A DNA stretch of 64,000 nucleotides from Amoebophrya sp. A120 (GCA_905178155.1 CAJINV010000005.1:5731754-5795753), one strand, 5' to 3'. Positions 4,036-62,809 are shown, counted from the stretch's first letter. The notes: a model not told the origin generated them from the sequence alone. A program made the numbers and translations.

Positions 4036-4718
4036 CGGAACCGACAACGAAAACAATATCTCTTCTACCTTCCTCCTGGGCGGGTTGACCTTGACATCTT
4101 CCAGTGGCTTCGGCAATTATGGTGCTGGGAATGGGAATGGCGAAGATTATCGTGACCTGCAATTATCGTCTTCGACAAGCCTTGCGCCGAAGATCCCGAG
4201 CGACAGCTTCGATCTGGAATTCAACGACGACTGCAGTTTTATGGGACGCAAATTGGGTGGAATGATGCACAATGGAGGGAATTATCCTGTGCAAAAGTAT
4301 CGTACTCGTATAAATGCAAGTCTTGCGTTACAAATCTTTTTACTAAGGCAAATCCGCATGACAAATTCCATTTCTCATGCTAAGGAAATTTGTATTGCAA
4401 TTTATACTAGTACGATACTTTTGCAATGCATAGGAATGATCCAAGCACGATTTCCATGAACACGTCTTTCAATCATTCCGCAGGAACAAACGCGTCTGCC
4501 GCGCAAATGGACCAAAACCAGTATCTTCGCAATGGTGGATTCTTTCATCCGGACATGAGTCACATTTCGTTCGGGGCGAGCGGAGAGGTGAGTTGTTATT
4601 CCATGGGTGGAGCTACAGGAGGAGCTCCTGGAACGGCAGGAACGATTGGTGGCGGCCAAGGTGAAGAACAAATCACGAACTACATCGAGGATGGCGAGCA
4701 CGCAGTACAGAAGCCCAG
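4036..4718 (+). CDS. internal exons of a low-complexity (G/S/N-rich) hypothetical protein, partial
   Basis: ORFs 4013..4459 and 4426..4758 join in frame (MHNGGN-DPSTISM) after removing 4283-4437. Possible GT donor near 4719. Start and end unresolved. Confidence 0.6.
4283..4432. mobile_element. introner, family 2 (150 nt), DR GGAAT
   Basis: TATCCTGTGCAAAAGTATCGTACT...AGTACGATACTTTTGCAATGCATA, with GGAAT on both sides. Confidence 0.92.
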
Positions 4719-4740
4719 GTACGAAACAAAATCAGATTTG

Positions 4741-5515
4741 GGGAAAAGTGGTCAGTAGGCTCGTGCTCGCAGCTCTACCAGCACGACAGAGTATGCATGT
4801 TAACTAGCTATTATCCGTGTGACCGCAGTATTTGTAATCGAGCGCAGCCGTGTTGCTTTCTGTAGCCAGGACCACAGACTCTAGAGCAGGGGACGGGCGT
4901 GAGTGGGAAAGGAGGAAAAGGGGGAGGGAGCGACCGGGAGAGGTGGGGGGCCGCAGCGCAGAAAGGGGGAGCCGGAGGGGGGGGGGAAGGGGAGGCAGCA
5001 AGTGGGAAGGGGAGGAGGGTGGAACCCGAAAAGGAGGTGCCAAAGAGAAGGAGAAAAAGCACCCAAGGGCGAAGAGGAAAGGGCGAAGAGGGGCAAAGAG
5101 GTGTAAACAGGGAAAAACGCTGGGAGAGAGGGCGGAACAGCAGGGGGAAACCGGGGGAAATGCGAAAAAGGACGGCCGTGCCGGGGCAGAGAGAAAGGCG
5201 GAAACAGGGATCAGGCGCCATTGATGGGGGTTCGTGGGGTTTGGGCCGGGCGGGGACGCGAGAGTCCCGGTGACAGGGAGTCTCCGGTCATGGGGTTCCC
5301 AGGTGATTTCCGGTCAAAAGGCTATGGCGTACTGCTTCACAGGACGAGGGCTCCGATGGAAATAAATCCGTGCTCCACAGGGGGAGGAAGCTTCTTGGAC
5401 TCCCGACCCGGGCCCGGCTTCTCTCGACCACGGGGGCTCGTACTTGGACCCAGGGGAAAGTGGTCAGTAGGCTCGTGCTCGCAGCTCTACCAGCACGACA
5501 GATTATGCATGTTAA
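4741..5515. repeat. ~62-nt direct repeat (4741-4803 / 5454-5515) flanking a purine-rich ~650-nt insert
   Basis: AAAGTGGTCAGTAGGCTCGTGCTCGCAGCTCTACCAGCACGACAGAnTATGCATGTTAA occurs twice. Confidence 0.8.
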
Positions 5516-6757: not shown

Positions 6758-9700
6758 ATGTACCCGTATAACTACGATCAACCACAGCCTGCACCACAAG
6801 GTGCAGCAAATAAAGCTAAAGCTCCTCAAATCAGCACAAGCTCTGGCAACATCACTTTTCCCCTTCGTCTTCCTTTGCATACGGGTAGTCCGATGGTTCC
6901 TTCGAACAACTTGACCGGCACGTCCGTGTCGATCTCAACGAGTGCCCAGCCGACCGCCGCCTCGACGCCGTTGAGCTGCACCTCGAGTGCAAGCGCGAAC
7001 AACACCAGGATCACGTTTACCAAGTGTAAAAATGTCTGGGTCTGGAAGAGTCATGCTGTTTTTGCATGACACAGAAGGTCTGGCATGGAAGCTCTAGCAT
7101 CACAGGTTTCGAGAACCTTCCGCAATGCCGAATCCGCATGACAAGTCCCCTATTTTGCTGACAAAAAGTGGGAGCTTTTGCTATGTATGCATGAGAGACT
7201 TTTCTGTGTTCTGAAACACGCATTACAAGTTACAATCTTCCAGACCCAGACATTTTTGCATTTGATAACGTTGGACCAGCAAACGACGGCCGCGCTGTTG
7301 CAGCATTTGAACCAGGCCATTGTCGCGCAAGAGCAGCTATCCTGTGCAAAAGTATCGTACTCGTAGTAATTGCAGTTATGCATTACAAATCTTTTTCCTA
7401 AGGTCAATCAGCATTACAAATTCCATTTCTCATGCTGCGGAAATTTGTAATGCAATTGCAATTCATACTAGTACGATACTTTTGCAATGCATAGCAGCAG
7501 CAGCAGCAACTGGGAACAAATCAGATGCAGCAAGGCCAGCCAATCCGTTTCGGAGGCCAGCAGCAGGGTCACCAGCAGCAGGTGCACCAGACCGGAGGTG
7601 CTGTCTCGGCTAACATCATGGGCGGTGCCAACAACAACATCAACCAGAACACCAGTGATCTCCTTTTGAATTTCAGCGCGTTGAGCTCTCTGCTTCAGGT
7701 TCCAGCTGGTACTACTTCCAATTTGGGTAGTTGTTCCATGAATACGCCCAACAATTCGTCGTCGCCTCTGCTGGGCTGCAACATGAACAACATCGGAAGT
7801 TTGGGAAGCACCACTCCTCAAGCCTCCCCTTTGCGGCGAACGGAAAACAGCGAGGCTGCTGTGCCTGCGAACCAGACCAAGAGAATCTTGCAGACCATTT
7901 CCATCCGGAAACTGCCCGCGCCGTTGTTCCAGGTGGAGAAGGCGAAGATCGTTCACGAGTTGAGACAGATTGGCCAGCACGCGTTGTCGCAGTTCGGCAG
8001 TACCAATTCCTTCGAATTGAAGGTCGCGGAGGAGTTGAGTTTCAACCTCTGCCCGCGAACGGGCGAGCGCCTCCCCGCAGCGGGGTGGAAACTGGAGGTG
8101 GACTTACCTGCGGCGATGGGAACTTTGCAGCCCACGAAGATCACCGTTGCAAAGATTTACTACGTCTCGCGCCAGGCGGCCGTGAACAGTAAAAACGAAG
8201 AAACGAGCAAGGCTGGGGCACAAGGCAGAGACACAACGACTCAATTCAGCACTCGTGTTGACCCGCGGGAGTATCCAAGAGAAAAACTGTGTTAGTGTAA
8301 CTTTCCTTGGCTGACAGCATCACAAATTTGCTCTACATGACAGCGAAAACCTGTCACGCGTGGCTTGTAGGGGAAAGCACACATGAAAAGAGAACTTCAC
8401 GTTTGTCTGGCATCACAGGTGTAACTCTGTTGCATGTTCTGCATTACAAAGTTACACTTACACAGTTTTTTTCTTGCATAGGGAGACCGTCGCATCTACT
8501 GCTGATGATAAGGGCAACTACGGTGCGGGTGGAAGCCCGACAAGGGGTATGGAAGCGTCAGAATTGAAATCGTCAAAGTTGAAATAGTTTGTCATGCATA
8601 AAACACATACCAGCTAGACCTACAGTTTGTAGTCGGTGCATGACAAATTTCCCCGGTCCTGGAAGCGAGTCTGTCATGCGGTTTAGGGCAAAAGAGCTGC
8701 CCTCTGTCATGCTAGTTAGCAGTCCAACTTTTGAACCTTACCAGGACTATAATCTGCCTCCCGTGGGTCCTCTGCAATAGAGTCACTTTCTGTGTCGCAT
8801 TTTATGCATTACAAATTATTTCAACTTTGACGATTTCAAACCTGACGCTTCCATAAGGGGGCAAAAGGAATTATTGGATCTTCTCCCGCCCGCACACCAC
8901 ATATCAAATGCAAAAATGTCTGGGTCTGGAAAAATGCAAGGTTTGTCATGCTAGGCTAGCAGGACTCTCAAGTCTGTCATGCGCGTTACCCAAAAACCTT
9001 TTTTTTCTGTGATGCAGAGTCGTAGTTTGTCATGCAGAATAGGCAACACTTAGAAGTTCAGAAACTTGTCATGCTAGGCCATTATTTGTGGGTTCCTCAT
9101 GCTACGTCACTCAGCATTACAAGTTTCCAGACCCAGACACTTTTGCATTTGATACCACAAACAGAGCGCCGATTTTCTGATTCCCTTGCAAGGCAACAAC
9201 GTGACTACGACCCCGCGCAACACGGCCGACACGTTTCAGTCCGCTTGCTCCGGTCATGCGGAATCGTCCCCGTGTTCGTCTGTCTATGGTGGAACGAGGA
9301 AGAACACGATTGCCACCTCCGCTTTCACGAGTTGCCGGAATTCCCCGATGGCTAGCATGATGAACAACAATTCAAGTTCTCCAGCCGGCGCTCGGGATTC
9401 TATCGCTTGCTCGGCTATTTTCACCGGTCGGAATTCGGAGGAAAACAAGAACAACCAAAGCGGTGCAGCTGCTTGCACGGCCTCGTCGAATGCAAATGCA
9501 AACAACCGGAAGGAGGCTTCTATGGAGGTGGAATTCTTGGAGAACAACAATTTTCTCGAACACGATGGGCAAATGATGGAAATGATTTCAACCGTCCAGA
9601 AGGTGGTCAAAGAGGCAATCGTGGCGAAGGTTTTCGAAAACGAAAATTTTAATGCGAATGGGACCACTTCTACTTCTTCCGATGCTGCTCTGTCCACGAA

Positions 9701-11381
9701 AAAAATGCAGCCGGTTCTGTCAGTCGACATCACAAATTTCTTCCACCAGTCGCAAAAAGTGACGGAGAATTTCAAGGCGATCTTCGGCACGACGAAAACC
9801 AATACCTGCTTCCACCCGGGACCCGTGAATGCGCAGCTGAGCTCCAAGATCAACTGGAACAATCATGATAGTACTCAGGGCGGAGGTGGTGCTGGTGGTG
9901 ATCACCAGCAGTCTGGAACAAATCTGTACTGCGACACGGCACAACCAGCTGATCCCTCTTTCCACTATGGTGAGCTCACCTTCCGCGTTTGCCGGAAGTG
10001 CAGCCAGCAGTGCCAGAAGGACAGCGTCAAGATTCAGCAGGAATTCGGACATCTGTTGAACAATACCCAGCAGAACGACAGCAGTACTAGTGGTGAAAAC
10101 AACACTACTTCTGTCCTCTGCGCCAACCGGCTGCGCATGCAATTGTTGATGGCGACGGTGCAACAGGGACTGGATGAGAATGAGCAGCAAATCCAGCAGC
10201 TGCAACTCGGATTGATGCCCCAGAGCGTGCTCCGCACCTCCACCGGGATCACGAGCAACAGCACCAAGATGAACTTCTTCGGGCCGCCCCCAAGCACCAC
10301 CGGGCCGCCGTTGACGTTTTCGAGGTATGTCCCGAAAATGACCTGGACGGTGAAGCTGAAGGTGCCCAAGCAGTCAGGACAACTAGGTGGACACCAGATG
10401 ATGTACAACCAAGAGCACCAGCAGCAAAATGTTTACGATGCGTTTTCCGGGACCATGAAGGGAGGGAGCAACATCATGGGTGTGAACAATATGAACCAAC
10501 AGGTTGCCCCGCAATCTACTCCGGAACAAGATTTCGTTCAGTTCCTGATGGAGAACAGCAACGTCGCAAACATGATCGAGTTATGCATTGCAAATATGTC
10601 TGGGTCTGGCAGAGTGCTCTAACTTGTCATGCTACATCTGGATCGTGGAAAATAAATTTGTGTTGCATGATTACCAAAGGAGGGTCACTTTTGAACAAGT
10701 TGAGAGGCAGTTTCTCATGCAAGAAAGGCATGATAGAGATCTTCTCACAGAACCTGTCATGCTAGGCCGTGCATGCCAGACCGCGTGGGTCATGGAAAAC
10801 CTGCATGACAAACCTAGCACTCTTCCAGACCCAGACACTTTTGCATTTGATACGAGTCTATCAGCTACACGCTGCCGCCCTTCTCCGCCGAGCTGGTGCC
10901 TTCTACTAGTAAGAACCCAGCAGCTCCTGCTTCTGCTTCTTCTCGCAACAGTGCGGCCAGTGGCAGTCCTGTTTTATCTACTTTCCCAGCCGCCCGGGCT
11001 TCCGCTTGCCAAAACACTCAGCAGGCGATGTTGTTTAACAGAGCTAATGGTTGGACTAGTGACCACTTCAGCAACAACTTTTCCGGTCTGTCTACTGCTG
11101 CAGCAACGACCTCGGGAAGTAATACCAGCAACAGTTGTCTTTTGACCGATTTCCTGTTTCCAATGCCGATGGGCGGTTCTTGCGGCGCCGGTGGATCCTT
11201 AGTATCAAACACATTCAACGGTACTGCGGTGAGTTCTTCGAGTTCATCCCCCGTGGGAGGCCGCCCAAGTAGCTCCTTTTCCGTCGCGATGGGAGAGGTG
11301 CAGGCACGCCCGTCGGTGGCGGAGTCAAGCGTTCTTGGGCTCAACATGTCGTCGCGCCGAAGTTCCTACATGCAAATGTAA
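6758..11381 (+). CDS. hypothetical N/Q/S-rich protein, ~1048 aa, 7 exons, 6 introners
   Basis: Removing the six elements (7018, 7338, 8272, 8548, 8902, 10582), each plus one 5-nt DR (1477 nt total), leaves 3147 nt in a single open frame from MYPYNY to SSYMQM*. Confidence 0.85.
7018..7267. mobile_element. introner, family 1 (250 nt), DR ACGTT
   Basis: TACCAAGTGTAAAAATGTCTGGGTCTGGAAG...CTTCCAGACCCAGACATTTTTGCATTTGATA; the frame is restored as RIT-LDQQ. Confidence 0.93.
7338..7493. mobile_element. introner, family 2 (156 nt), DR GCAGC
   Basis: Family-2 TIRs; the frame is restored. Confidence 0.93.
8272..8480. mobile_element. introner, family 4 (209 nt), DR GGGAG
   Basis: TATCCAAGAGAAAAACTGTGTTAGTGTAACTTT...AAAGTTACACTTACACAGTTTTTTTCTTGCATA. 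Confidence 0.9.
8548..8855. mobile_element. introner, family 3 (308 nt, ~55-nt TIR), DR AGGGG
   Basis: TATGGAAGCGTCAGAATTGAAATCGTCAAAGTTGAAATA...TATTTCAACTTTGACGATTTCAAACCTGACGCTTCCATA. Confidence 0.93.
8902..9154. mobile_element. introner, family 1 (253 nt), DR CCACA
   Basis: Family-1 TIRs; the frame is restored into ORF 9186. Confidence 0.93.
10582..10852. mobile_element. introner, family 1 (271 nt), DR CGAGT
   Basis: TATGCATTGCAAATATGTCTGGGTCTGG...CCAGACCCAGACACTTTTGCATTTGATA; the frame is restored into ORF 10896. Confidence 0.93.
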
Positions 11382-15900: not shown

Positions 15901-16160
15901 ACACATTTCAGTGAATGTAGATGAACGAGCCAGGGTGGATTCAAAAAATCTTCTGATGTCTCCGCGATAGATCCGCCCACGGAAAAGATCATATAGATAT
16001 ACCCCAGTATGTGATACATCGATCAAGAGTAACGTAAAATCTTGATCCATTGGCTTTTTCTCCGCTCAATAGACAGTGCCTCAGATGATGACCGCAAGCA
16101 TCATCGAAAGTTGTTTCTCTCATCTGCGCCTATGTCTAGTACGACTGATACTGATCTAGC

Positions 16161-16163
<3 letters not shown>

Positions 16164-16192
<29 letters not shown>
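16164..16192. repeat. (CT)n microsatellite upstream of the RRP46-like gene
   Basis: Perfect CT run. Confidence 0.9.
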
Positions 16193-16196
<4 letters not shown>

Positions 16197-16238
16197 TGAA
16201 AGAAGTTCTTTTTCTTCGTATAATTTCCGAGCATCACC

Positions 16239-35640: not shown

Positions 35641-36084
35641 CACACACACATGAAGAAAGAAATCGAATGTGGCTCAATTGTTTGATTTGAAAAAACCTCC
35701 GTCATCTGGTGGTGGTTCTTGCCGTCGGTGGAACAGAGGATGGATCAAGATCGCACTCGTCATCATCACAACCATACATAGACAAATCCATCGTGGTGTC
35801 CTCGACCAACAAGGAGAAGGACAAGATCGTGGCTGTTTGTTTTCACTTGGAATTAGTATCCATATTGACGCCAAAAGTTCAAAAATCTCAATCACAAATC
35901 AACGATTTCTATTTCTCTCGAGGGAGATGTCACGGGGTTGAATGGATCCAATTCAAACAAGTTGATCTTATCGATGATGTCACTATTGACCAAAAAAGGT
36001 TATCTTCATCAGCATTCAATGTTCCTCCGCATCTTCCCGTTCCCCCGGTCGTCCGACTTGCAAAACAGCAACCAGTGCATGCCC

Positions 36085-36215
36085 TATCCAGGAGAAAACA
36101 CCCATCCATTTTTTGCATGTTGACAAACAGTGCTTTTGATGCGTGAGCATGTGATGATTGTCACGCATCATGCGTGACAATTTAGATGGAGATGGGTGTT
36201 TTATTTTCCTGGATA
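36085..36215. mobile_element. introner, family 7 (131 nt), DR TGCCC/CGTCC
   Basis: TATCCAGGAGAAAACACCCATC...GATGGGTGTTTTATTTTCCTGGATA; related to 53630. It lies in a poorly resolved minus-strand coding region. Confidence 0.8.
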
Positions 36216-37024
36216 CGTCCGCTGCGTTGGCGACAAAGTGGTCTTTCAGAATCAGTTCCACCGAGCACTGCAGCGGGAGATCCCCGCCCAACAGGTGGAT
36301 GCCTTGTTCGTGCAAGGATTTACAATATTCCTGCTTTCCCGCGACCGTTTCTAAAGCGGCGACCGAGGTTTGCTTGCACCAGTCCATGCTGCCGCTGGTG
36401 GCGAAGTCGGCGAACCTGGTTGATGTGGTTATTCTCTACTTATGTCCTGGGAATTTGTGTAGTTCGATGATGGACAGGCAAGAAGTTCTTCATTTGTGTC
36501 GCATAATCAAAAAAGAACATCATCGTGATCAAAAAGACGAAGAAATACTTGTCCATCCGGTTGTAGTGGGACCCGGGCTCCGTGAAAAAGCAATTTTTTA
36601 TGGAATGAAAAAAATCTGGTAGTTGTCCTGTTGCCCGAAGTGTTTTGATCATCAACATTTTTCCCATTCTTTACAACTACAAGTGAAGATTCTCGATCAT
36701 GTCTCGTCCATCTACAACTATTGCATGACAGATTACCAGCCATGCCCCGGCTGACGCCGGGGCGAGCGGCTGTTGTGGTGAGGCAGGACGATTTGCGGAT
36801 CGGGCCACAGCGCCAGAGCTTTGCGCACGGCGCGGTAGGTCGAAGGAAATACTGGCGCCGGTTTGCGCCATCTCAACCCGCTGGGCCTCCTGCGCGCTTC
36901 CCGCGCCTTCAGGCGCTATGCGCAGGGAGCAGCTGCAGCGACGCTTGGGGGCGAAGCGAAGCCGCCTCGGCGTAGGTGCCTGCCGAGGCAGAACGGGGGC
37001 CGCGATGCCCTTTTGTGATCACGC

Positions 37025-37580
37025 GCGAGAGGGTGGCCTGGGAGGGTGGCGCGAGAGGGTGGCGCGAGAGGGTGGCGCGAGGGGGTGCGCGAGAGGGTGC
37101 GCGGGACGGTAGCGCGAGGGGGTGGCGCGTTAGGGTGCGAACCTACGCGACAAAAAAGGCCCAAAAAATCGACCCCTTGCCGGGCGGATTCGAGTTTTTT
37201 TAACCCTCTCGCAGACCCTCTTTTTCACCTCTGCCGAGAGGTGTTGCTAATAGTCCGGCTATACTCGCCGGTAGAGGTCTACAAAGGTGGCCGAGAGGTG
37301 GCCCAGAGGGTGCGCGAGAGGTTCGCCCTTATTCGCGCAACCTCTCGACACCCCTGTCCCCCTCTCGCTTACCCTCTCGGGGCCCTCTCGGCCACCTCCG
37401 GGCCCCATAGGCGCGGCTTTAGGGCGACCGGTTCGGCTGGCTATACTCGCGCCACCTCTCGGCCACCCTCCCGAATGACCTCCCGCGCCACCTCTCCACC
37501 TCTGTGGACCTCTTTTTGACCTCTCTTCACCTCTTTTTGACCTCTCGGCCACCTCTCTTCTATCCTCTGTAGACCTCTTT
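37025..37580. repeat. GC-rich degenerate repeat (GAGAGGGTGGCGC / ACCTCTC arrays in both orientations)
   Basis: Tandem copies at 37025-37135 and mixed or complementary copies at 37200-37580. Confidence 0.65.
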
Positions 37581-37630
37581 TTTCGCATGAATATAATAGA
37601 TAGTAATAGGATTTTGCAATTTATGAACTT

Positions 37631-43600: not shown

Positions 43601-44965
43601 AGTGCCAGTGGAGGTGGCCGACTGGCCGGAAACCTTTTCAGCAATTGTTCGCGGTGCTGATCTTCCAGCCTAAACAAAACGCTCAACAGACTGCTGTTCT
43701 GCTTCAGAAAGTCTTCCGCTGCTAAGAATTCGCACTGCAAGAAGACGTCGAGCGGCGTTTGCTCGAACACCCCGCGCTGCGACCAGAGGAACCGCGTGCG
43801 GGCCTCCCCCTGCATGTTGTCGATGATGTGCTTTAGCAGATCCCGCTGGCTCTTGCCCGGGCTTTGCAGCTGTTTCGCCCGTTTCTGGAGAATGGTTTCC
43901 AGTAGGCGAACTTCAGCAGTTGCTGATGAAATAAATTCTGCGGTAGCGGGAGCGGCACCGGCGCCCCCGGGGTACAAGTCTTCCTTGTTCGAAGCAAATG
44001 TTGGGTAGAGGGTCGAAGAGTGGTCAGCAGGAGTAGAAAGCAAAGGTTTTATTTTTCCCACGACGACCTCCTGGTCCGACAACAAGAGCTGCGCATCACC
44101 ATTTGTTGACCTCTCTTCCTCCCCTTGCTTCACCCGCAACACGAGGTGCAAAATCGCCTGCAGCGCCTCTTTGGACGGGTGGATCTTGGTGGGCAGGGGG
44201 CAGATATCAAATGCAAAAAGTCGTGCTAACGTTAACGGTTTTCACAGATGGCAGTTATGCATTACAACTTTTCCCTTCCATGCATGCTACGCAATACAAA
44301 TTTGGGCACCCGACCCTACCCTTTCTGATGCGTTACTGCATCACAAATTCCGTTAACGTTTTTAACGCTTTTTCTTGTGATAGCAGAGATCGTCGACCAG
44401 GAAGGTTTGCCAGTCCAGAATTACCTGGCGGATCTCGGTATCCTGTCCAAAAGTCTCGCGCTCGAGCTCGTATTGCAATCATGCATTACAAATTTCTTTC
44501 TCAAGTTAAATCTTCTGCATGACAAATTTACTTCTCATGCTGAGGAAATTTGTAATGCATTTATACGACGAGTACGATACTTTAACTTTTGCATTTCATA
44601 CTCGGTCAGGGCCGCTTTGTCGGACGCGGGCAGGGAGCCGCGGAGGCTGATTATCCTGAGTAAAAACGTACCCACACCAGAGTTGTAATGCAAATCTGCA
44701 TGCCAAAAGAGTTTCTCATGCTGAGCCCCATGAAAGGCGTTTTCTAATCGTGTTTTGGGATTTGTGATGCTATAATCAGCATGATATGCTAGGCCTGTGA
44801 TGCTGCTGAACTACCTAAACAGGATTACACTACAAGGACAAACTTGTCATGCGAAACAGCCAAAGCTGGTTGATTTGTCTAGCAGATTTACCATCTTGAC
44901 TCTGGTGTGGGTACGTTTTTACTCAGGATACTGATCCACTCACGCTCGTTGTCGGTGGTTTTCAT
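37631..44965 (-). CDS. large hypothetical protein interrupted by 14 introner-type elements
   Basis: Manual splicing links MKTTDNERE, LHLVLRVK, KEHVLRPM, QLHYHRLQ, YLKMLYDLF, LVREIVLQ, LHQILENAY, FRNRFHALQY, IMDQTGKK and MTHVRKQ in one frame. The junction at 41683 and both termini are uncertain. Confidence 0.72.
37760..38065. mobile_element. introner, family 8 (306 nt), DR ATACG
   Basis: TATTACAGTGAAAAATACCCCCACCCC...GGGGTGGGGGGCACTTTTCACTGTGATA. Confidence 0.9.
38125..38397. mobile_element. introner, family 1 (273 nt), DR TGCGT
   Basis: Family-1 TIRs; the frame is restored. Confidence 0.9.
38572..38832. mobile_element. introner, family 1 (261 nt), DR TCTGG
   Basis: Family-1 TIRs; the frame is restored. 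Confidence 0.93.
39618..40738. mobile_element. family-1 introner expanded to 1121 nt by a nested tandem insert, DR CGTGA
   Basis: Both TIR ends and the DR are intact; the frame is restored as RFH-ALQY. Confidence 0.9.
39633..40641. repeat. 488-nt unit x2 plus 33 nt (A-B-A-B-A), near-identical
   Basis: TGTCTGGTGTTTTGTCTGGAAACAAGACCTTGG at 39633, 40121 and 40609. The identical ORFs 39905 and 40393 confirm the 488-nt period. Confidence 0.95.
40975..41232. mobile_element. introner, family 1 (258 nt), DR GGAAG/GGAAC
   Basis: Family-1 TIRs, related to 8902; the frame is restored. Confidence 0.9.
41683..41961. mobile_element. TIR element, family-9-like (279 nt), no clear DR
   Basis: Perfect 14-nt TIR TATGGCGCTGTCAA...TTGACAGCGCCATA; flanks AAATA/AACGA. 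Confidence 0.75.
42067..42212. mobile_element. degenerate introner (~146 nt)
   Basis: TATCTGGCATAGG...CCTTTTGCAGTCGTA; element+5 removal restores AFML-LVREIV. Confidence 0.5.
42290..42432. mobile_element. degenerate introner (143 nt), DR CTCAA
   Basis: CTTGCAATGCGAAAA...TTTCACATGGGATA; the frame is restored as FFLVE-VEEV. Confidence 0.7.
42596..42855. mobile_element. introner, family 1 (260 nt), DR CCTTC/CCTTT
   Basis: Family-1 TIRs; the frame is restored. Confidence 0.9.
42959..43206. mobile_element. introner, family 9 (248 nt), DR TGGAG
   Basis: TATGGCGCTCTCAAGCGTTACATTCTCAGCTG...CAGTTGAGAATGTAACACTTGAGAACTTCATA. Confidence 0.92.
43335..43543. mobile_element. introner, family 4 (209 nt), DR TGCTC
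   Basis: TATCGCAAGAAAAAACTG...CAGTTTTTTCGTGGGATA; the frame is restored. Confidence 0.88.
44205..44382. mobile_element. introner, family 10 (178 nt), DR GCAGA
   Basis: TATCAAATGCAAAAAG...AACGTTAACGG ... CCGTTAACGTT...CTTTTTCTTGTGATA. Confidence 0.88.
44439..44600. mobile_element. introner, family 2 (162 nt), DR CTCGG
   Basis: Family-2 TIRs; the frame is restored. Confidence 0.9.
44652..44930. mobile_element. introner, family 6 (279 nt, perfect 32-nt TIR), DR CTGAT
   Basis: TATCCTGAGTAAAAACGTACCCACACCAGAGT...ACTCTGGTGTGGGTACGTTTTTACTCAGGATA. Confidence 0.95.
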
Positions 44966-46074: not shown

Positions 46075-48846
46075 TCACATCAGCTTCTCATCCTGCACAC
46101 GTCCCCAAAAAATCAGACTAATCCGGCTCCCATACACGTTTTTCTCGATTGGGATGCTGTGCTGAAAAACGCTGTTCACCGGTGTCGTAAAGGCGAACAG
46201 ATCGCCGTCGTGCTGCGGGAAGGAGAATTCGCGACTGGTTTTCAAGTGTTTAAACGCCAGGGTTCTCGTCGCGCCGAAAGAAACACCGATGGTGACGTTG
46301 TGATCCTCTGCTACTGATTGTTGATGCTTTCGTGTGGCTTGCTGGGCTGCTTGTTGGGGTCGTTGCTCTATCGCAGTAGTTCCTCTTGAAGATAGACCTT
46401 CTCCCGGTTCTTGAGGCGAGGGTAGTTTCTTCGCTGTGTCAGCTCCTCCGTCGACACGAAGATCGCCTTCATCGAGCAGGAGCGTTTCTATAAGATAAAG
46501 ATGGTCTACTTGTTGTTCAATATCGGTTTCGTTTTGCGGCGCAGCGAACAATATCCGAGATGATTGAGCATCAGTCTGTTCATCAATTCGATCTCCAGCA
46601 GGTGAGGTTGACGGATTATCTGGGCGGGCATCTTCAGGACGTCGTTCATCTTCTCCTGCCTCAGTGGACGAGGGGGTGGCAGGAGCAGAGGAAACGATCG
46701 CAGCAGCTGGAGCTGCTCCAGTTTTTCTTCCAGTTCTCTTCGCAGGCACAGGAACGGCATCGGAGAGGTGTGTCGCTTCCCCTCCTGCAAGAAGAACACT
46801 TCCTGTTGTACTAGTTGTTCTTGTTGCAGCTGCGGCCCCGCCGGCATCTTCTACCTCTGACCGCAAAAGAAGTGGCTCAGCAGAGGACGCACGAACAGGA
46901 ACAGCTTCATTGTTCCTTATCGTGTTTCCCACTTCCTGCTCCTCGTCCACCCTCTTCCGCGCTCCCACAAAATCTTGCTCCTCCACCGCAACTCCCACAG
47001 CTTTTTCCGTTCTCCCACTGGCCTGAAACTTATCGCGGTGCATGTCCGTCCAGTCAGTTCCGTTCCGGTACAAATTCGCGATGGAATATCCCAGTCTGAA
47101 GCTCGGAAACCGGTGTTGCACAGCAGAAAGTACCTCGCGGTAGCACTCGCTTTCCTTCAACAGGTATCAAGTGCAAATATGTCTGGGTCTGGAAGATTCC
47201 GGGACTTGTGATGCATATTTTGTATGAGTCATGATGAATGTAATGCATGATCTAGCATCACAGAATTTTACAGGGCTTCCTGATGCCTATTCCGCATGAG
47301 AAATGCCCTCTCGTCCGCGTAACACAAACTGGACTCCGTGTTGTTGGTCACGCAATACAGTTTTTTTTTGGAATCCAAAGACAGCATGACAAGTTGCAAT
47401 CTTCCAGACCACCCAGACATTTTTGCATTTCATAACAGGACCGGGTCGACGATGGCCGGGTGCTTGGAGCGGCGGTAGACCGATTTTTCAAATTTCGGCC
47501 CCAGCTCTATGGCGCTCTCAAACGTTACATTCTCAACTGTTCCATGAATTTGTAATGCAAGAATGGCAATAAACGACAAAGAATGGAGGTCGCACCTGTA
47601 GCATTACAAATTCCGCACAGATTTAGGCACTGTTTCGCCTTTTCAACATTTGTCATGCGAAGTAGCTTTATTGTGTGGATCTGGATGTCGATGCTCATTT
47701 TGCATGACATATCATGTAACAGTTGAGAGTGTAACGCTTGAGAACGCCATAAGCTCCGTGGTCAGACGGTCGTAGAAAGTCGTGCTTGTTGCTGGGGGTG
47801 ACGACGGTGCGTTTCTCGCCTGCGGAAGCAGAAGTTCATGCTTGTTCTTCAGGACGTCTTGTGGCCGTGAGGAGGAGGACCTAGTCGCTGCTGGTGTGCC
47901 ATTTGAATTATTCGACGTCGGACAACCAGCAACCTCCTCGCCCAGCCCGCTAGCACGCTTCTTGCTAGTGCTCGTCCCGATAAACTTGGGTATGTAGATT
48001 ATGGATGTGTCAGAGTTGAAATCGACAAAGTTGAAATGATTTGTCATGCATAAAATGCGACACAAAGACTGACTCTATTGCTGAAGGCGCAAGGGAGGCA
48101 GATTCTAGTGCTGGTGAGGGTCAAGAATTGGGCTACTGACTAGCATGACAGGGAGCAGCCATCTTGCCCTAAACAGCATGACAGACTTGCTTCAGGGGCC
48201 AGGAAAATTTGTCATGCGCCGATTGGAAACTGTCGGCCCAACTGGTATAGATTTTATGCATCACAAATTATTTCAACTTTGTTAATTTCAATCCTGACGC
48301 TTCCATATAGATGCAGCAGTGTTTCAACTGCGCCACGTCCCTCTCGAACTTCGCCCGCTCGTATTCCGCAACCTTCGCCGCCTTCAGCCGCTTCGTCTCC
48401 GTTTTCGAAAACATCTCCGCGATGCTTTGCTTGTTTTTGCTCGTGATCAGATTAATCTCGGACTCGGGCGGCCGAAACAACTGGTCTGCGTAGATGGCGG
48501 CGGAGTAGGTTCTTTGGTTCTTGATAATTCCCAGTGAAGCTGAGGCTGAAGCTGAACTCGGATCTCGGCGAAGATTGTTTATTCCACCTCCCCCGCCTCC
48601 AGTGCTGGACGAGGCACCACCGGCAGCAGGTGCAATGGCAGCTTGCGCTGCTCCTACACGACTAGCATATGGAGCTGCTTGGGACGAAGATGAGGAAGCA
48701 GCCGGGCCGCTGGCCTTGTTCGTTCCGGACGACCTGGAAGAAGCCCAGCGGGACCGAGGCCTGCTGCTGCCGGTAGTTGGCGCTGGGCCATGATCTGGTG
48801 CGCCGCTGGGGGAAGGGAAAGTGGTGCTCGAGGACGACATGGTCAT
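46075..48846 (-). CDS. AlkB-like 2OG-Fe(II) dioxygenase (~644 aa), 4 exons, 3 introners
   Basis: The spliced product has CIYIPKF, ANLYRNGTDWTDMHRD (HxD), VTIGVSFGATRTLAF, QHDGDLFAF, FQHSIP (distal His) and RISLIFW (2OG-binding Arg). Confidence 0.85.
47165..47434. mobile_element. introner, family 1 (270 nt), DR ACAGG
   Basis: Family-1 TIRs; the frame is restored. Confidence 0.92.
47508..47751. mobile_element. introner, family 9 (244 nt), DR AGCTC
   Basis: Its interior is the reverse complement of 42959-43206; the frame is restored. Confidence 0.92.
48000..48307. mobile_element. introner, family 3 (308 nt), DR TAGAT
   Basis: Family-3 TIRs; the frame is restored as CCIY-IPKF. Confidence 0.93.
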
Positions 48847-52154: not shown

Positions 52155-55100
52155 TTACAACACCATTTGATTTTCTAAGCATTTTCCACGAATGAAAACT
52201 AAGTGGACTAGGATTCCGATCAACATAAACGACCTAGGGCCGCCCTCGACGATGAACCCCGGTGGACCCCGATCCGGTTTGCTGCCGCGAGCCTCCTTCT
52301 GCGCCGGCGACTTGGGCTCCTTCCGTACTGCCCATGATATCGTCCTGGCTACTATTTTCCTCCCGACGCCGGCGCTGCCGGCGCTCGTTATGAATTCGTC
52401 GCCCGGTGGGAAATCGCCCTTGCGAGGGACAGAACATGACTTGCAGCGCATGAAGAATCCGTCTCAGTCTGTCTCTGCGCTGCGGAGAAGGAAATTAAGG
52501 AACTTTGTAAAAAGTGCGTACTTATTTATAGGTCCTCTGTGTCTGTTTAGTGTTTACGCCCAGAGGTGACTGGAGAGAACGACAGGAGTGCTTGTCACAG
52601 TCTTCGTGCTATTCATCAGCACAACTGTTGCGCTAATGATCAGCACAACTGTTGTGCTAAGAATACTGTTGTTGTCAACAACATATTGAGATTGACGCTA
52701 ATGATCCATCGGCAAAATTGGATGTCGTGCGCCGCTTACAAAAAAAAATGATGCATCTGAGTGCTGCTCCCGGTTGTAGAAGCCAGCACCTTCTTAATAC
52801 ATGGCAGAGCATTTCCCCTGGGAGAATTTCCCACCAGGCATCAAGATCATACCGCTCGTACTCGCTCGGCGACATCCCCATCGGAATGTCATCCCGCTAT
52901 GCACCGCAAGAATGCCATTATATCCAATAGAACATACAAAAATTTTCTTCCGGGAACAGCACCGACGCCACTGGTGATTGCTTGACAAAAACAAAATTGT
53001 TTCATGCATGACAAACTCCGGGTGTTTCATCGTTCGTTATTCTTTTTCATGATGCTGATCGAAGCTTGTTAGCAAACTGACCAAAAACCTCGCTCCTGTA
53101 TGGTGTTCGCTGAGAGCAGCTGCGCGCACTCGGTCTACGACATGCTTGCACAGGATACTCGTTGCTGGTCCACCATTGCGAGGTACGATTCCGTCGGTGG
53201 CGGTAAGGCGGATCTGATGTTGTTAAATCAATATGTTGGGCAGCACGGAAATAGGAAAAAATCAAGATGAGGACCATTCCATTGTGTTGCTGCATTAGTT
53301 TTCGATCCTTACCGCTCTTGTAGCGCAAGTACTGAAAAATACCCATTGGCCCGCATCCACTTGATCACTTCGTCCGTGTATGCAGCGGCGGAAAATCTTT
53401 CTCATGATCACCAAATTTATCAATCTGTAGCGTTCTTCATGCGTCATCAATGCGCCGCCTGAAAAAAAAGATGGTTGTGCAGGATTGCATTGGTTCATAC
53501 GTTATCGCAAATTGAAATTGATTGATGTTGATGAGAAACTACTTTTCCCCGCTCATACCGTGTACACCGGCGGTCCCTCGGGGCCCCAGGAGTCAGTCGG
53601 GGTACTAGCGCTAGCAGTCCCCCGTCCTCTATCCAAAAAAAAAAGACCCATGATCCTCATCCAGATTTTGCATGACAAACACAGGATTTGCTGCATGTTT
53701 TGCATGACAAGTTGGATACTAGGGAAGATGGGTGTTTTTTCCTGGATATCCTCGTGATTTGTCCGGAGGTGGAACATTCTCGGCGAGCAGTCTGACCTCC
53801 ATCGGAAGCTGGAACAAAGTCCTCCCGGTATCCTTGCTTTTTCCGACGGTCCTCGCCGGGGGAAGCGCTAATCCGGGAACAATGCCCACGGCAGGAGGTC
53901 GCGGCTCCCGCTGGTGCGCACCACCCGCGTAGTACTGCTCAATTTGTTCCACCAGGTGTCTCCCGGAGGAATCGCTTTGCAGCTGGTCTTTCAGAGTTAT
54001 GAACGGGAAGAATGGTTCGCAAGGGTAGTACCACCAACTCCAACATCAGCTGTTCTTGCTCTTGCAGCATGTCGCTGTCTGATGAGCATGAGAAAGAGCA
54101 AAATGTCAGATCTCGCTCCAGCGTCGCAAATTTACTTTTGTTGGCGGTGGTCAGGGCTGCAGCAACTAGGTAAGCGTACAAGAGTTACTAGTATTAGGCA
54201 TCATGGGAATAAGTACCCTCACCGCCTCCACCTCCTCACGTAAAAATATGCGTAATTCAAATTTTCTCTTCGTCAATGCAAAAACGGCATGACAAATTGC
54301 AACTAAACGTGGTACTACGGGTTTCCATACTAGTACGTCGCTTTCATAAATGTGCGGCGCAGTTGAGGCGGAGTCGTGCCGGAACTGAAGGTCTGGGGCG
54401 TGGTCTTAAACACCGTTTTCTGTCCGGAATCACCAGCGGCGACGAGCAGATGCAACCCGCCAGTGGATGCCAGTATCACAGGAAAAAGTAGTGTTAACGT
54501 CAACGAATGTCATGCAGGAACGCATGAAGATGTAGAAAGATGTAGATGGTGATAGACATCACTGGAATTTGTATTGCATACGTGCTAAGCAAAATACATT
54601 CTTCATGCATAGCTGCAATCTGTGAAGCTGACGACCGTCAGCAATCTGTGACGATAACACGACTTTTTATTTGGTTGATAGCCGGCTTTCCGGGACCATA
54701 CTTCTTTCCCACCTCGGCTTCCACGAAGGTGTGCAGAAAGTGGTATGCACCGCAAAGAAGTACCGCATTACGTAGCAACCCGATTTGTCCCTCTTGGCAC
54801 TCAGTATGAGTCATTTATTACTTACGTGGAATGCTAAATCGGGAGGCACGGTAGTACTTAGACTCATTTTGTCTTGTTTGACATGACTTTGTCATGCGTA
54901 ATTGCATGACACAGTGGTCCACCAGGTACGATTCTCTATCTCTACATCAGGATAACTGGAGTTCCGTCGTGTCGTAGTCCACTTGTAGTTCTGCCTCGAT
55001 CGCCGATATCCTGTGCAAAAGTATCGCGCTCGTAGTAATTGCATTTATGCATTACAAATCTCTTTCTGAAGGCAAATCAGCATTACAAATTCAATTTGTA

Positions 55101-55410
55101 ATGCAGGGCTAAGATGTGTATGCAATTTATACTAGTACGACTACGATGCTTTTGCATTGCATAGCCCCGCGAAACTGCAGTTGAACCGGTGTAGCCCACA
55201 CTCCCTCGCCGGTCAACAACGACGTGGCGAGGAAAAGGGGCAGGAGGAATCGGCACACGAAAGTTTTCAGCGAAAAGTGAAGGGCGTGATCCCTGGAGAA
55301 AGTCGAAGGATTGTTCCACATCTTCTTGGTCAACATGCTGGTCGTGTTCATCCGCGACCGCAGGGAAAAAATGCCGGCGGACGGGTCAGAAAATTTGATG
55401 TTTGTCATGC
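52155..55410 (-). CDS. multi-exon hypothetical protein with mixed introner and GT-AG introns (partial model)
   Basis: Spliced runs RGAIEAELQVDYDTTELQFLHTFVE...PASTGG and DKSRGRGT...VYTDEVIKWMRANGSALPPPTESYLAMVDQQRDDIPMGMSPSEY. Junctions near 54050-54350 and 52450-52750 are unresolved. Confidence 0.55.
52898..53157. mobile_element. introner (260 nt), DR CCCGC/CTCGT
   Basis: TATGCACCGCAAG...CTTGCACAGGATA; the frame is restored as QQR-DDIP. Confidence 0.75.
53214..53342 (-). other. canonical GT-AG intron (129 nt)
   Basis: Minus strand reads GTATTT...CTAAT...pyrimidine tract...CAG; removal gives RANG-SALP in frame. Confidence 0.7.
53379..53557. mobile_element. introner (179 nt), DR CCGTG
   Basis: TATGCAGCGGCGGAAAA...TTTTCCCCGCTCATA; the frame is restored. 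Confidence 0.85.
53630..53748. mobile_element. introner, family 7 (119 nt), DR TCCTC
   Basis: TATCCAAAAAAAAAAGACCCAT...ATGGGTGTTTTTTCCTGGATA. Confidence 0.88.
54474..54680. mobile_element. introner, family-10-like (207 nt), DR GCCAG/GCCGG
   Basis: TATCACAGGAAAAAGT...ACTTTTTATTTGGTTGATA; the frame is restored. Confidence 0.78.
54744..54954. mobile_element. introner (211 nt), DR AGTGG/ACTGG
   Basis: TATGCACCGCAAAG...CAGGATA; the frame is restored as ELQ-FLHT. Confidence 0.75.
55007..55163. mobile_element. introner, family 2 (157 nt), DR GCCGA/GCCCC
   Basis: Family-2 TIRs, close to 7338. Confidence 0.88.
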
Positions 55411-55485: not shown

Positions 55486-55678
55486 TATTCCACGAAAAAA
55501 GTGTTACAGTTACACATTTGTTGTCAATTCAGCAAGAACACAAATTTCTCTGCATGAAATTATGCAGAAATCCTACGGGAAAACACTTAGGTCTCGAGGC
55601 TCCTATGTATATCCGGCATGACAGAACTTGCTTGTCCTGCAACACAATGTGTAACTGTAACACTTTTCTTTTGCGATA
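55486..55678. mobile_element. introner, family-4-like (193 nt), DR TCCTG
   Basis: TAT...AAAAGTGTTACAGTTACACATT ... AATGTGTAACTGTAACACTTTT...GATA; the host frame is unresolved. Confidence 0.85.
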
Positions 55679-59011: not shown

Positions 59012-60476
59012 GCCGTACAGAATGTTTGTCTTACTTATTTATTTCAAGAAATTATTAATAAAATCAAGTGTTGAATAGGTACATACACAGGGGACACTTA
59101 AGAACAGAGATGCAATATGTATCATGCACTCTGTCCGCGATGGGGTAATTCGCGTCCTGTGATCATGAGCGAGTATTCATAGACGGAAATCAAAGTTACC
59201 TTTATAGATAATTCAAAATGCTGATCTTTGTCTTTCTTCAAGTCCTCAGGAGGTGTCAAACCAGACCGACCACGACCAGATGAGAAATCGCGAATCAATA
59301 TACGACGTTGACCGACAAGAAGTAGGCTGTGGCTCATCTCCACTCTTGATGCTCACCAAATCGACCGAATCTAATTTTTGCCACACGAGAAAAAATAACC
59401 ACGCAAGCGGTGATTACGAGCATGACAGAAATCATCCAGCAAGAGATCAATGAACCGAACCTAACCAACACGGGGACCACCGATGTTGAGAAAAGTAAAA
59501 ATCAACTCGCTTTGTTGATGTTCCACGACCGACCATGCACGACTTTTAACTTTGCAGCTTCAAGGAGCAACCGAAATAATGGTCATGAAGCACTACCGAC
59601 ACACAGTTCATCTTCAATCAACATTCTGCCACCACAGTCACAGACACAGTCACAGGTTCCGTGCGCGACGGGACTAAAAGTTGATGTGTCTATCCACGCC
59701 CATTACTGTGTCCAACAGAGACAGCTTGTACAGGTTGCGACTTTATTCGGTGTTTAGAATTTGAATTTCATCTCTGACGGGCAAGGAAAACGAAACTTCA
59801 AGACGATACATACTATGTGTCACACAGGCCGACGGGTGCGAGTCTACTGAGCCAAACGTCTTCCTCCTCGAAACATTTCCTCTGGCCCTGGACAAAGTCG
59901 TGCAGCTTGTTGCAGCAAGCGTATGACCACCTCCACAACGTTCTCGTAGTTCCAGTTTGGGTAATATTGCAAGAAGACGCTGCTTGCTTCGTCGTCGTCC
60001 CAATTGAACGAAGAAGGAGCTGCTCGAGGTCGCTTCTAATGGTAATGGTAACTGTTTCCGCCAGTCTGGCACTGGCAAATAAAGTTTATCGCTTTGCTAG
60101 CTCGCATTGATTAGCTTTTCTCAAATTGAAATTGAAATTTGTCAACATTATTATACATTGACGAGGACGAAGATGTGTGAGTGTGATAGCGATGCCTACA
60201 TTAATAGCCTGACTTTTCTCATAAAGTTGAAACTTCAACAACATCAATGCTGGCTGAGTACTATCATGAAATTGAAACATAAGCTGTGCGTAAAATGAAA
60301 AAGAGAAAAACGCGGATAATCACAAAAAGCTAAAACTAACTAAATCGATAAATTGTCAGAGTGAAACCACGAACATGGGATGCGACCAAACTCAACTACT
60401 GTAATTATAGCAAAGTCCCGAAATGAAAAGCTTCAACTTCTCCGAATTAAACATGAGGTTTTTCTGCCCTGTAGGA

Positions 60477-62809
60477 CTAGACATTGTGGTGGAGTGTGGA
60501 TTTGTTGTATTTGGAAAGCACCGGATTGCTTCCATTTTCTCGTTCATTTTTGACATGTATGACGGGGCACAACTCCCGCCCTTCGTCCCCTTGATTTGTC
60601 ATGCAAAACCCCATAGTCCAGTCACTCCCCCCTTGCTGCACTGTTTGCACGACAGATTCCGGAAGCCGGAACGGCACTGCATCGGGCACATTAGTTTGTC
60701 ATGCATAGGCTCCACGTGCGCAGCTGGTGTTCGTATTGCTGTTCATGCCAAATACAAATGAGAGCGAGGGAGGACAGTTGTGCACTCTCATAACATGCAG
60801 ACGCCGCGCGTGGTGTCTGTTTAACACGTAGTACAGCATGAGGAACTGCTATGCTATGCAAAATCGCGGCCATCTTCAACACCTACCTGGTCATGCACAT
60901 GACGCATAAAAAATTCTAGCTGTCGTGTCATTCTGATTGATTCTGGCATGACAAACTTTCGTAGATGGGCACGATTTCGACAATTTTTCAGAGGATAAAA
61001 ACAACAGCACCGCAGCGGTCGCAGTATGGGTGGCCGTATGAAGTGCAAGTATCGTTCTGGGTCTGGTAAGAACCACCTTGTTATGCTGGAGTGTGGATAA
61101 GTACTTTCTTAAATTGTTGTTGTTTCAAGTGAAGTCGTGCGTCCACCCGCACACCAGATTACAGCCAGCGTTGTCTTGCATGACGAAGAATTCAGCGCTG
61201 CCTCCCGGTCCACCGCACGCAATGCAGAGTAGATTTTTTTCTGGGACAAGCACAAGTGCAACAAGAGGACACGCAATAGAAACAACACTTTTCCAGACCC
61301 AGATTACAATTAGTTGCAACGCATAGACGAGCTGCTCCCCGAGGAATTTTCGTTGCTGCCCGTATAATTGCCGATCATTTCCGAACAGTACTTCCGGCAT
61401 TGTGGCCGCAAAATAGCTGAACCCGACGAAAACCAAAATTCCGACTGCGACCGCGGTTTTGTTGCACAGAGAGAACACCAGGATAGTTGTCGTACAAGTT
61501 GTGGAAAAACTACTTTCATCGTCGTGGTTCTTCATCAACGCCGAACCCGAAGAGTGTTTGTAGTCCAGCACCTTGCAGCTGTTGCAAAAGAAGTTCTTCT
61601 GTCGTGCGATAAGCTGCGTCTCTTCCTCCTCCTCCTCCCTCGTCCCGTGCGGCTCGCGACAGCTGCGACTGTTCGAGGCGAACAACGACGTTCTTGATCT
61701 ACTGGAAGTACTACAACTGGAGCTGCACCCCTTCACGGCCGCAACCAGACCACAGAAAAAGATGATGATCAACAGCAAGCACCCGATATCGTAAAGAAAA
61801 AGGCGTTTCACTGTGATGATGTATCTATTATTTGCACGTTTGTTCGCATCACAAGTTTTTCATTCTGCATGTGTAGAAGCAAGACAAACACTTCCTCCGC
61901 GTTGCCTCCTGTGCCTCGTGAAACAGTTTTTTTCTTGCGATACGCGATGGCGTCGCTGTACAACATCCCCGCCGGGAGCATCGCGTATGATACGGAACAA
62001 CTCGCCTGTCGATCTCCAGCTCGTCCTGGTTGTTCTTGTTTGGTATTCTACCACGCAATATCCAGGGCCCCTTGTACTACTTGGAAGACTTGCATGACAA
62101 GCTGCAACGGTACTCGAAGAAATAAGCGCACTACCGTAGTTGGGTCGGGGTATAAATTCGTCATGCAGTATAGGCTGCTTTGTTTGTTTGTTCTAATGCT
62201 GCTCCACCTGCCATGCAAACGCTCTAAATCTACAGGATTAGAACTAGTTGTCCACTATCATACCACGCGCGGGCCAAACGGAGAGGAGGCCTGCTGTTCG
62301 TCGTCGGAGCTTGAGGAGGAGCCAGTCGCTACCAAAAACCGTGAAAAGACCGCGAGGAATTTGGAAGCGAAGCCGAGCATCAACGTCTGCTGTGCCACCT
62401 GATCTTCGGCTGATGAGGAACTCGTGCTGGCGGGTAACACCACAGAGGGACGACGACCTCCAGGGTGATGATCACCAACCTGTTGATGGGACGACGAAAG
62501 CGGCGTGATAGTGATAGACCTAGTAGAATTTTCCCTCGTCCACGTCCCACTCTGTTCGCCCGACGACGCCACTTTAATCGCAGGAGACGTCGATAGCCGC
62601 CCAGCATGGGGATCAACACCCGCCATGATTTCCAGGTCGTTAAACCAGCTTGTCATGGTGGAGGGAGCAGTCCTTTCGCTGGTGTCCAAATCCGTTTCGC
62701 TGGTGAGCAGATGATCGTCCCGTGGAGGTACTATCCCGCGTGAAATGGCAGCTACGATCACCCATGCATAATTACAACTCATCACACAAATAACTACTAC
62801 ATAGTACAT
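60477..62809 (-). CDS. multi-exon membrane protein, partial model
   Basis: Spliced MLYSDAIA-CLLLIIIFFCGLVAAV plus further hydrophobic segments. Several junctions are unresolved. Confidence 0.4.
60558..60792. mobile_element. introner, family 5 (235 nt), DR ACATG
   Basis: TATGACGGGGCACAACT...AGTTGTGCACTCTCATA; related to 24370. Confidence 0.88.
61037..61325. mobile_element. degenerate family-1 introner (289 nt)
   Basis: TATGAAGTGCAAG...TCTGGGTCTGG ... CCAGACCCAGA...TTGCAACGCATA; the DR is eroded. Confidence 0.7.
61787..61942. mobile_element. introner, family 4 (156 nt), DR CCCGA/CGCGA
   Basis: TATCGTAAAGAAAA...CAGTTTTTTTCTTGCGATA; the frame is restored. Confidence 0.82.

Follow-up and report, generated by a model that had tools for sequence, protein, structure and literature searches.

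A single cut register for TAT...ATA inverted-repeat introns in a 64-kb window of Amoebophrya sp. A120

Introduction

This work deals with the non-canonical introns of a 64-kb window of Amoebophrya sp. A120, the window being the whole stretch of DNA analysed, taken as a single strand, along which all element positions are counted. The closest system described is that of the introners of this strain (Farhat 2021, PMC7789003), which present ends formed by TAT, 7 variable nt and AAA, inverted repeats of 8–20 nt, direct repeats of 3–5 nt and a length of about 240 nt, and which are mixed with GT-AG introns and supported by RNA. The legends of Fig. 3 and Fig. S23 of that study give their border as "variable" or "unknown", with sites 1–5 nt from the repeats. 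Introns whose mode of removal is at issue make up about 65% of those of A120, and PMC7789003 could not place their borders.

Comparable introns are known from other organisms. The nonconventional introns of euglenids (N3-CDG...CH'G-N5-6|R; PMC12501133, PMC11282704) are described as similar to miniature inverted-repeat transposable elements (MITEs), with paired ends, free terminal dinucleotides, cuts placed at fixed, unequal distances from a triplet that is conserved and paired, repeats that mask the border by letting it slide, and coexistence with GT-AG introns, all of which are likenesses to the introns of the window. They differ in the triplet (CAG/CTG instead of TAT/ATA), in the offsets (3 and 5–6 instead of 1 and 4), in belonging to an unrelated lineage and in the circles shown for Euglena. 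The euglenid marks themselves (CDG at +4, CH'G at 5–6 nt from the 3' end and a purine after it) were not found in the introns of the window, and the likeness is geometric only. The introns of Fritillaria borealis (PMC11282704) are also MITE-derived and non-GT-AG, with terminal inverted repeats (TIRs) and target site duplications (TSDs), and involve a changed spliceosome; preferred ends (AG-AC, AG-AT) are kept there, whereas first and last bases are free here. Finally, the TIR/TSD introners of Symbiodinium, Aureococcus, Florenciella and others (PMC9860276) are introns made of DNA transposons, have splice sites partly in the target duplication and leave the length of the mRNA unchanged. Their GY and AG are either carried by the element or co-opted, so that only some sites are tolerated, whereas neither dinucleotide is needed here.

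The elements of the window are the published A120 introners. They come from the genome of the same strain and share with them the end motif, the TIR with direct repeats, the absence from transcripts with borders other than GT-AG and the organization in families, so a preliminary description of this sequence was right in presenting the phenomenon as already known. In contrast to the published account, the border resolves here to one register, and the repeat is of 5 nt and dispensable. The analysis thus confirms a known system, to which it adds the single register with free terminal bases.

Results and Discussion

Element Catalogue

The window was scanned for TA[TC]...[AG]TA end pairs beside a 5-nt direct repeat (DR), which gave 27 elements whose repeat was exact and whose TIR score was at least 8. 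The same scan of 10 block-shuffled windows yielded no element in nine of them and one element in the other. An end-profile scan from these core ends enlarged the catalogue to 46 elements by sequence alone and junction data added five more, giving 51 TAT...ATA inverted-repeat elements with a median length of 250 nt (range 119–1470). The preliminary description, which had counted about 45 MITE-like elements with TIR and a 5-nt DR, was therefore close. A generic repeat scan was discarded, as it anchored the ends wrongly on an internal TGCA palindrome (56 matches, versus 10–14 in shuffled sequence).

Among the 54 core ends of the 27 elements, TAT was present in 53, and A occupied positions 11, 12 and 13 in 37, 42 and 49, respectively. 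Under the rule given below TAT is intact in 48 of the 51 elements and ATA in all of them, partly as a selection effect of the search; the five introns found from junctions alone all have TAT at +2 and ATA at −7. The DR identity was 5/5 in 28 elements, 4/5 in nine, 3/5 in seven, 2/5 in four and 1/5 in three. Removed lengths gave remainders of 0, 1 and 2 modulo 3 in 18, 16 and 17 cases, so that 33 of the 51 elements shift the frame, as had been noted for many of them. Removal of each element with one DR restored the frames of the four genes for which this had been proposed, with 6, 7, 3 and 3 elements and products of 1048, 1344, 570 and 644 aa. A full junction was available for 35 elements and record arithmetic for one, while 15 are known from sequence and frame only. 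A search of the window against Rfam gave no match at the gathering score, either to group I or II introns or to any other curated RNA family.

The Cut Register

The position of the cut was expressed as k, the number of letters kept of the upstream repeat copy in the transcript direction, which diverged copies limit. Junctions were considered informative when they exclude part of the range 0–5 (n = 16); those permitting all of it were left out (perfect repeats, and 30046, 42596, 52898 and 53998). Eight informative junctions came from RNA-type contigs (23577, 24831, 28231, 30378, 36085, 40975, 41683 and 36599) and eight from proteins (42248, 52389, 54474, 54744, 55007, 61787, 61986 and 62732). 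A value of k = 4 fitted all 16, k = 3 or 5 fitted 10 and the mirror value k = 1 fitted three. The chance of 16 of 16 under an even draw from 0–5 is about 1e-5, a rough figure that assumes independence. Two junctions, 36595-38069 and 62728-62940, do not slide at all. Of the informative junctions, four belong to genes of the plus strand and 12 to genes of the minus strand, the mirror being excluded in three and 10 of them, respectively. Since the register agrees on genes of both strands, the cut is oriented by transcription rather than by the DNA strand. This gives, with high confidence, an intron of the form N-TAT...ATA-NNNN, cut 1 base before TAT and 4 bases after ATA. These offsets sum to 5, one duplication's worth, and hence the mRNA bears no trace of an insertion, whatever its site.

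Under this rule the first intron base is G in 18 introns, T in 14, A in 13 and C in six, and 15 different dinucleotides occur at the intron end, with AG in five introns. The claim that neither GT-AG nor GC-AG can be obtained at 7018, 7338 and 8272 was verified; over the 51 introns such a reading exists only at 42596, and an AT-AC reading in three, so that neither the U2-type (GT/GC...AG) nor the U12-type (AT-AC) pattern describes them. Among the nine commonest non-canonical ends listed for A120 in Table S4 of PMC7789003, T is second in all and four different first bases occur, while the nine commonest of strain A25 all start with TT. The A25 starts fit an intron beginning at the first T of a TTA repeat, in which case +2 is again T and +3 is A.

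Several points weigh against a single register. Half of the informative junctions (8 of 16) derive solely from annotated proteins, and X3, X5 and X6, the sources of RNA-type contigs, are perhaps the data behind the annotation, in which case the two sets of evidence may be non-independent. The only data that are RNA on record, those of the estuary metatranscriptome X9, cover one junction with a perfect repeat, which is uninformative for the register. In addition, the sample consists of 16 junctions from one 64-kb window, against some 40,000 such introns, and the fixed junction 62728-62940 ends in AT-AC, a possible aligner preference. Together with the variable sites 1–5 nt from the repeats in the legends of PMC7789003, these points could suggest that splicing is real and that the cut floats within the duplication, the single register being an effect of small sample or annotation. 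This is improbable, because the eight RNA-based junctions intersect at register 4 by themselves, the agreement of all 16 has the low chance given above and the published spread is accounted for by slidable repeats. No statement of a fixed register was found in the literature searched, with subscription papers outside its scope; the logos of PMC7789003 (Fig. 3 and Figs. S19–S23) may hint at it.

Absence of the Elements from Transcripts and Proteins

The sequences compared with the window were contigs, and not reads, of X3, X5 and X6 (RNA by guess), together with the estuary RNA of X9 and the DNA run X1. At least 14 distinct element junctions were found in X6 contigs, each of them corresponding to an element plus 5 nt. 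In a second set, the best 15 of 18 joints comprised 12 of element type, two GT-AG introns and one artefact, and among the 12 element-type joints listed at least five recurred in X3 and at least four in X5. The X5 joint 25256>26704 was rejected, since the copies that it links belong to the same family and 10 surplus letters are present. The X9 data contained one element junction, the skip of 10577-10852. At the protein level, the junctions of four public proteins within the window number 32, of which 28, all fitting the rule, are of element type and four are GT-AG; three of these proteins, P0002, P0004 and P0005, named as Amoebophrya sp. A120, match the window exons letter for letter (100%). 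The raw-read run X13 gave 96 reads, all partial and on element ends only; the single contig of run X10 had no junction, and protein P0007 did not map to the window.

These data indicate that removal almost certainly occurs at the RNA level. If the elements were instead excised from the DNA of the expressing stage, by a transposase or like the internal eliminated sequences (IES) of ciliates, the contigs lacking them would be empty DNA; TIR and target duplication are the footprint of a DNA transposon, X3, X5 and X6 are RNA only by guess, and the joints of X1 (best 15 of 1255) are all repeat copies, so rare empty sites may exist. However, all eight X1 contigs shown had no differences from the window at a depth of 39–46, and at element borders they continue unbroken from the exon about 25–30 nt into the element, in this one run; the empty site expected of ciliate-type IES in somatic DNA was thus not seen in the X1 contigs shown. 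Moreover, X6 has RNA-like traits, its element-lacking contigs presenting uncovered stretches and also skipping GT-AG introns (one contig bridges two of these as well as element junctions), X9 is RNA on record, and the asymmetric register follows transcription at the junctions where the mirror does not fit (3 on the plus strand, 10 on the minus strand). Excision from DNA is accordingly very unlikely. The proposal that the introns are removed precisely was thus borne out, removal being base-exact in transcript-type contigs and the X1 contigs described above retaining the elements.

It was also considered that the junctions could be template switches of the reverse transcriptase across hairpins with short repeats. 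All the RNA data are cDNA, and a hairpin with a direct repeat is a known setting of this artefact. This explanation is hardly credible, since 33 of the 51 elements are frame-shifting and whole genes are open only once they are removed, the junctions with 1/5 identity and those that do not slide keep the same register, and an element-free paralog (32810-34501) confirms the reading frame.

One protein speaks against the removal of every element: P0005 reads into the element at 61037 rather than skipping it, through either a retained intron or a gap in the annotation. Within the region 60300-61325, this protein ends inside the element (61037-61325), the removal of which, along with that of the two elements after it, would lengthen the frame; the public model of P0005 may be mis-ended. 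The 1475-nt intron 36595-38069 contains another element (37760-38065), the separate removal of which was not seen. Removal in one or in two steps gives an identical mRNA, and the frame continues for about 100 residues.

Recognition and Possible Mechanism

The repeat is dispensable, since removal is correct even in the three introns whose repeat copies agree at 1/5 positions, and length is immaterial, introns of 1126 and 1475 nt being cut exactly. Terminal pairing was predicted in 40 of 49 introns, with a median folding z of −5 (the value of element 62732 was computed from coordinates one base off). Positions 1–3 of the ends are pairable in 96–100% of cases, positions 4–7 in 47–65% and positions 11–13 in about 90%. 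The near-invariant marks are TAT at +2..+4 and ATA at −7..−5. Both the fold and these short sequence marks seem to be used. The preliminary description had proposed a machinery that recognises paired ends and not dinucleotides; the ends usually pair and there is no GT-AG rule, but the weakly paired introns 24831, 54744 and 36599, with 8–9 of the first 16 positions pairable, are cut at the same place. The donors of the four canonical introns of the window are GTATTT in three and GTACAA in one; as canonical donors are mostly GTATTT, N-TAT equals the canonical donor minus its G. This resemblance leaves room for the spliceosome. The fixed register was missed in that description.

On balance we lean towards an altered spliceosome as the catalyst. 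The hairpin would join the intron ends in place of the U1 step, N-UAU would be read like a canonical GUAU donor with the requirement for G dropped, and the 3' cut would be set by a distance of four bases from AUA and not by an AG; the branch point could be an A of AUA. PMC7789003 reports U1 as undetected in both A25 and A120, and the minor small nuclear RNAs (snRNAs) as absent. In strain Kv, U1 was found and introns are canonical (PMC12005148). A review (PMC11282704) likewise reads the Amoebophrya case as an adaptation of the spliceosome.

Other considerations count against this catalyst. Its role is something that we infer, contigs being unable to show lariats, and the intron is free at its first base as well as at its last two. 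Such a lack of constraint is unusual given the spliceosome structures. The window introns gave no branch-point consensus other than ATA itself. TAT and ATA are also transposon ends, and the match to GTAT may reflect selection among families and not shared recognition. Finally, the euglenid introns of similar geometry leave as full-length circles (PMC12501133, PMC11282704).

A separate, structure-guided endonuclease acting with a ligase could instead make its cuts a set number of bases away from the terminal stem, releasing the intron as a full-length circle or a linear piece; a mechanism of this kind has been proposed for the euglenid nonconventional introns. Such an enzyme would suit the lack of constraint at +1, −1 and −2, the predicted pairing in 40 of 49 introns with its median z of −5, and removal in both orientations over 119–1470 nt, and the unequal single-stranded flanks (1 and 4 nt) recall the 3 nt before the stem and 5–6 nt after it in Euglena (PMC12501133). 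However, it requires a new machine, poorly paired introns are cut as exactly as the others, and positions +2..+4 are identical to those of canonical donors. In addition, U1 loss tracks the strains with non-canonical introns, one intron is GT-AG at exactly the register of the rule, and the same repeat layout occurs in 15% of the canonical A120 introns (PMC7789003). We regard this alternative as possible and rather doubtful. In its broadest form, put forward with the same reserve, A120 would have a second splicing code, N-UAU...AUA-NNNN, read by a non-spliceosomal cut-and-join machine measuring from the transposon ends, and A25 a shifted version of it. If this were true, a code outside the spliceosome and tuned to the 5-nt duplication would silence insertions anywhere and in either orientation, and it would represent a second, independent origin of euglenid-like splicing.

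Probable Transposon Origin and Element Families

The commonest 28-nt element end gave 81 exact matches in a metagenome collection, all within one assembly (loci L001-L081), and none in the viral contigs searched. The best outside copies are 90–95% identical to those of the window, and the 81 loci share no unique sequence with it. In these outside loci the element families have sizes of 81, 15, 9 and 8. When the partner ends of 73 family copies were chosen without presupposing a repeat length, the longest exact flanking repeat was of 5 nt in 53 copies and no other length rose above background; the mean flank identity was 0.85 at 5 nt and 0.22–0.32 at other lengths. The largest family is oriented 42:39 in transcripts whose direction was predicted from codon use, and both orientations are expected because both element ends read TAT inward. 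In the window, the paralog at 32810-34501, which has no elements, keeps a single target copy where 31438 sits in its sister gene. The elements are likely short, inverted-repeat, non-autonomous DNA transposons inserted in exons, and, like MITEs, they are short and non-coding, with TIRs, a TSD of fixed length and insertion in either orientation.

Ten elements longer than 550 nt in the outside loci have longest frames of 85–224 aa, and no autonomous partner with the same ends was found among the elements of the window and the outside loci. An integrase-like TIR family reported in A120 (PMC12130899) may be a lead for the mobiliser. Matches to an internal motif derived from the elements, TTGTCATGC-like, lie inside elements in 125 of 131 cases. 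Counted on both strands, it is repeated in 44 of the 51 elements and absent from the four canonical introns; it may serve as a site for the transposase or as an enhancer of splicing.

The outside loci were also analysed for signals at the cut, with the direction predicted from codon use and 174–184 of 250 elements kept; these signals were not used as support. Their phase-0 excess (88/43/40) was not seen in the window (12/12/9, with one gene start shifted one base by hand), nor was their excess of strong bases and purines at the cut, and both excesses are partly due to codon position. In these loci the intronic copy of the repeat showed no shift towards A/T (23 vs 23), and conservation did not clearly differ between 5' and 3' ends (177 vs 179 of 184).

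Host Genes and Features of the Window

In what follows, each element is given with its DR identity, the register (values of k) permitted by informative junctions and its evidence. On the plus strand, elements at 3833..4035 (TAC start, 4/5) and 4283..4432 (5/5) were assigned by sequence and frame. The host gene at 6758..11381, with a longest unspliced frame of 489 aa, reaches its 1048 aa by removal of six elements, all with 5/5 repeats: 7018..7267 (TAC start), 7338..7493, 8272..8480 and 8548..8855, assigned by frame; 8902..9154 (AT-AC under the rule), from the frame and one side of an X6 piece; and 10582..10852, whose 276 nt (10577-10852) are skipped in X6 as in X9. An X6 contig within 9154-14137 extends about 2.7 kb beyond the stop of this gene, as a long 3' region or read-through.

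The gene at 23154..28942, with a 4375-nt X6 contig, passes from an unspliced 474 aa to 1344 aa by removal of seven elements. These are 23577..23838 (AAT start, 4/5, register 2-9; X6 skip of 267 nt, 23574-23840), 24370..24594 (5/5; one side and record arithmetic in X6), 24831..25037 (1/5, weak end pairing, register 4-5; joint 24829>25042 in X6 and X3), and, with joints in X6, X3 and X5, 25230..25498 (5/5), 26273..26580 (5/5, splitting the RING-like motif), 26666..26927 (5/5, of the commonest family) and 28231..28416 (4/5, register <=4; joint 28224>28416). Its RING-like match, and the 2OG-Fe(II)/AlkB-type match of the gene at 46075..48846, agree with the conserved motifs announced in the preliminary description, but they lie just under the Pfam cut-offs.

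The annotated protein P0002 is encoded at 29611..32116 (570 aa after removal of three elements, 273 aa unspliced). Its junctions support 30046..30325 (4/5), 30378..30720 (3/5, register 2-6; also a loose end in X6) and 31438..31592 (5/5, with the empty site in the paralog). The tandem paralog at 32810..34501, the empty-site control (563 aa), is 55% identical to it, and the pair (29611-34501) is 39% identical to a third A120 paralog, P0003, and had no Pfam match.

On the minus strand, the gene at 36009..44965 corresponds to P0006 (1087 aa), with 14 rule-type and two GT-AG introns, the latter at 36416..36548 (donor GTATTT) and 42023..42198 (donor GTACAA), both seen in an X6 contig and in P0006. 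Joints of X6 and P0006 support the elements 36085..36215 (3/5, register 3-4; joint 36080>36217), 36599..38068 (1/5, register exactly 4; joint 36594>38070), which is the outer element of the non-slidable 1475-nt intron, 38125..38397 and 38572..38832 (both 5/5), 39618..40738 (1121 nt, 5/5; joint of 1126 nt), 40975..41232 (4/5, register 1-7) and 41683..41961 (3/5, register 3-5). P0006 supports 42248..42432 (2/5, register 1-4), 42596..42855 (4/5, GT-AG exactly at the register of the rule) and, all with 5/5 repeats, 42959..43206, 43335..43543, 44205..44382, 44439..44600 and 44652..44930. The element 37760..38065 (5/5), which lies inside the 1475-nt intron at its donor, was assigned by sequence; it is a younger element that entered an older non-canonical intron within its opening bases, so that the donor of the latter is duplicated. 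This intron also holds an unrelated region of 13-nt tandem repeats (37023-37139). In the 1121-nt element, a 488-nt unit present 2.1 times with 99% identity (39633-40641) interrupts one terminal repeat.

The gene at 46075..48846, with the 2OG-Fe(II)/AlkB-type domain, yields its 644 aa (363 unspliced) by removal of three elements assigned by frame, 47165..47434, 47508..47751 and 48000..48307, all 5/5. P0004 supports a canonical intron at 53214..53342 (donor GTATTT) and the elements 52389..52851 (found from the junction, 3/5, register 4-5), 52898..53157 (3/5), 53379..53557 and 53630..53748 (both 5/5), 53998..54348 (found from the junction, 3/5), 54474..54680 (4/5, register 2-6), 54744..54954 (4/5, weak end pairing, register 4-6) and 55007..55163 (3/5, register 2-8). 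Sequence was the evidence for 55486..55678 and 60558..60792 (both 5/5) and for two degenerate elements with 2/5 repeats, 60850..60997 and 61037..61325, the last being the one entered by P0005. This protein supports 61787..61942 (4/5, register 4-6), two elements found from junctions, 61986..62262 (3/5, register 3-4) and 62732..62939 (intron 62728-62940, 1/5, AT-AC ends, register exactly 4, without slide at the protein level), and a canonical intron at 63046..63258 (donor GTATTT).

Three other regions of the window were noted. At 4740-5520, about 70–80 nt are near-identical at 4742 and 5452 around a purine-rich block, resembling a repeat with direct terminal repeats; reads break at a CT microsatellite (16154-16201); and 18700-22700 has a DNA depth of 2–3 fold with many variants in X1 and X6, as a repeated and transcribed sequence.

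Implications

A fixed rule makes the removal of these introns directly testable, as it indicates where the branch point or the circle should lie, which bases should be mutated and which changes are to be expected in the snRNAs. It can also be used as a gene-finder signal for the A120 genome, for instance in cases such as P0005. The rule would mean that splicing takes place without a required first or last intron base, and its offsets of 1 and 4, which add up to the 5-nt duplication, explain how these elements can invade exons harmlessly anywhere and in both orientations.

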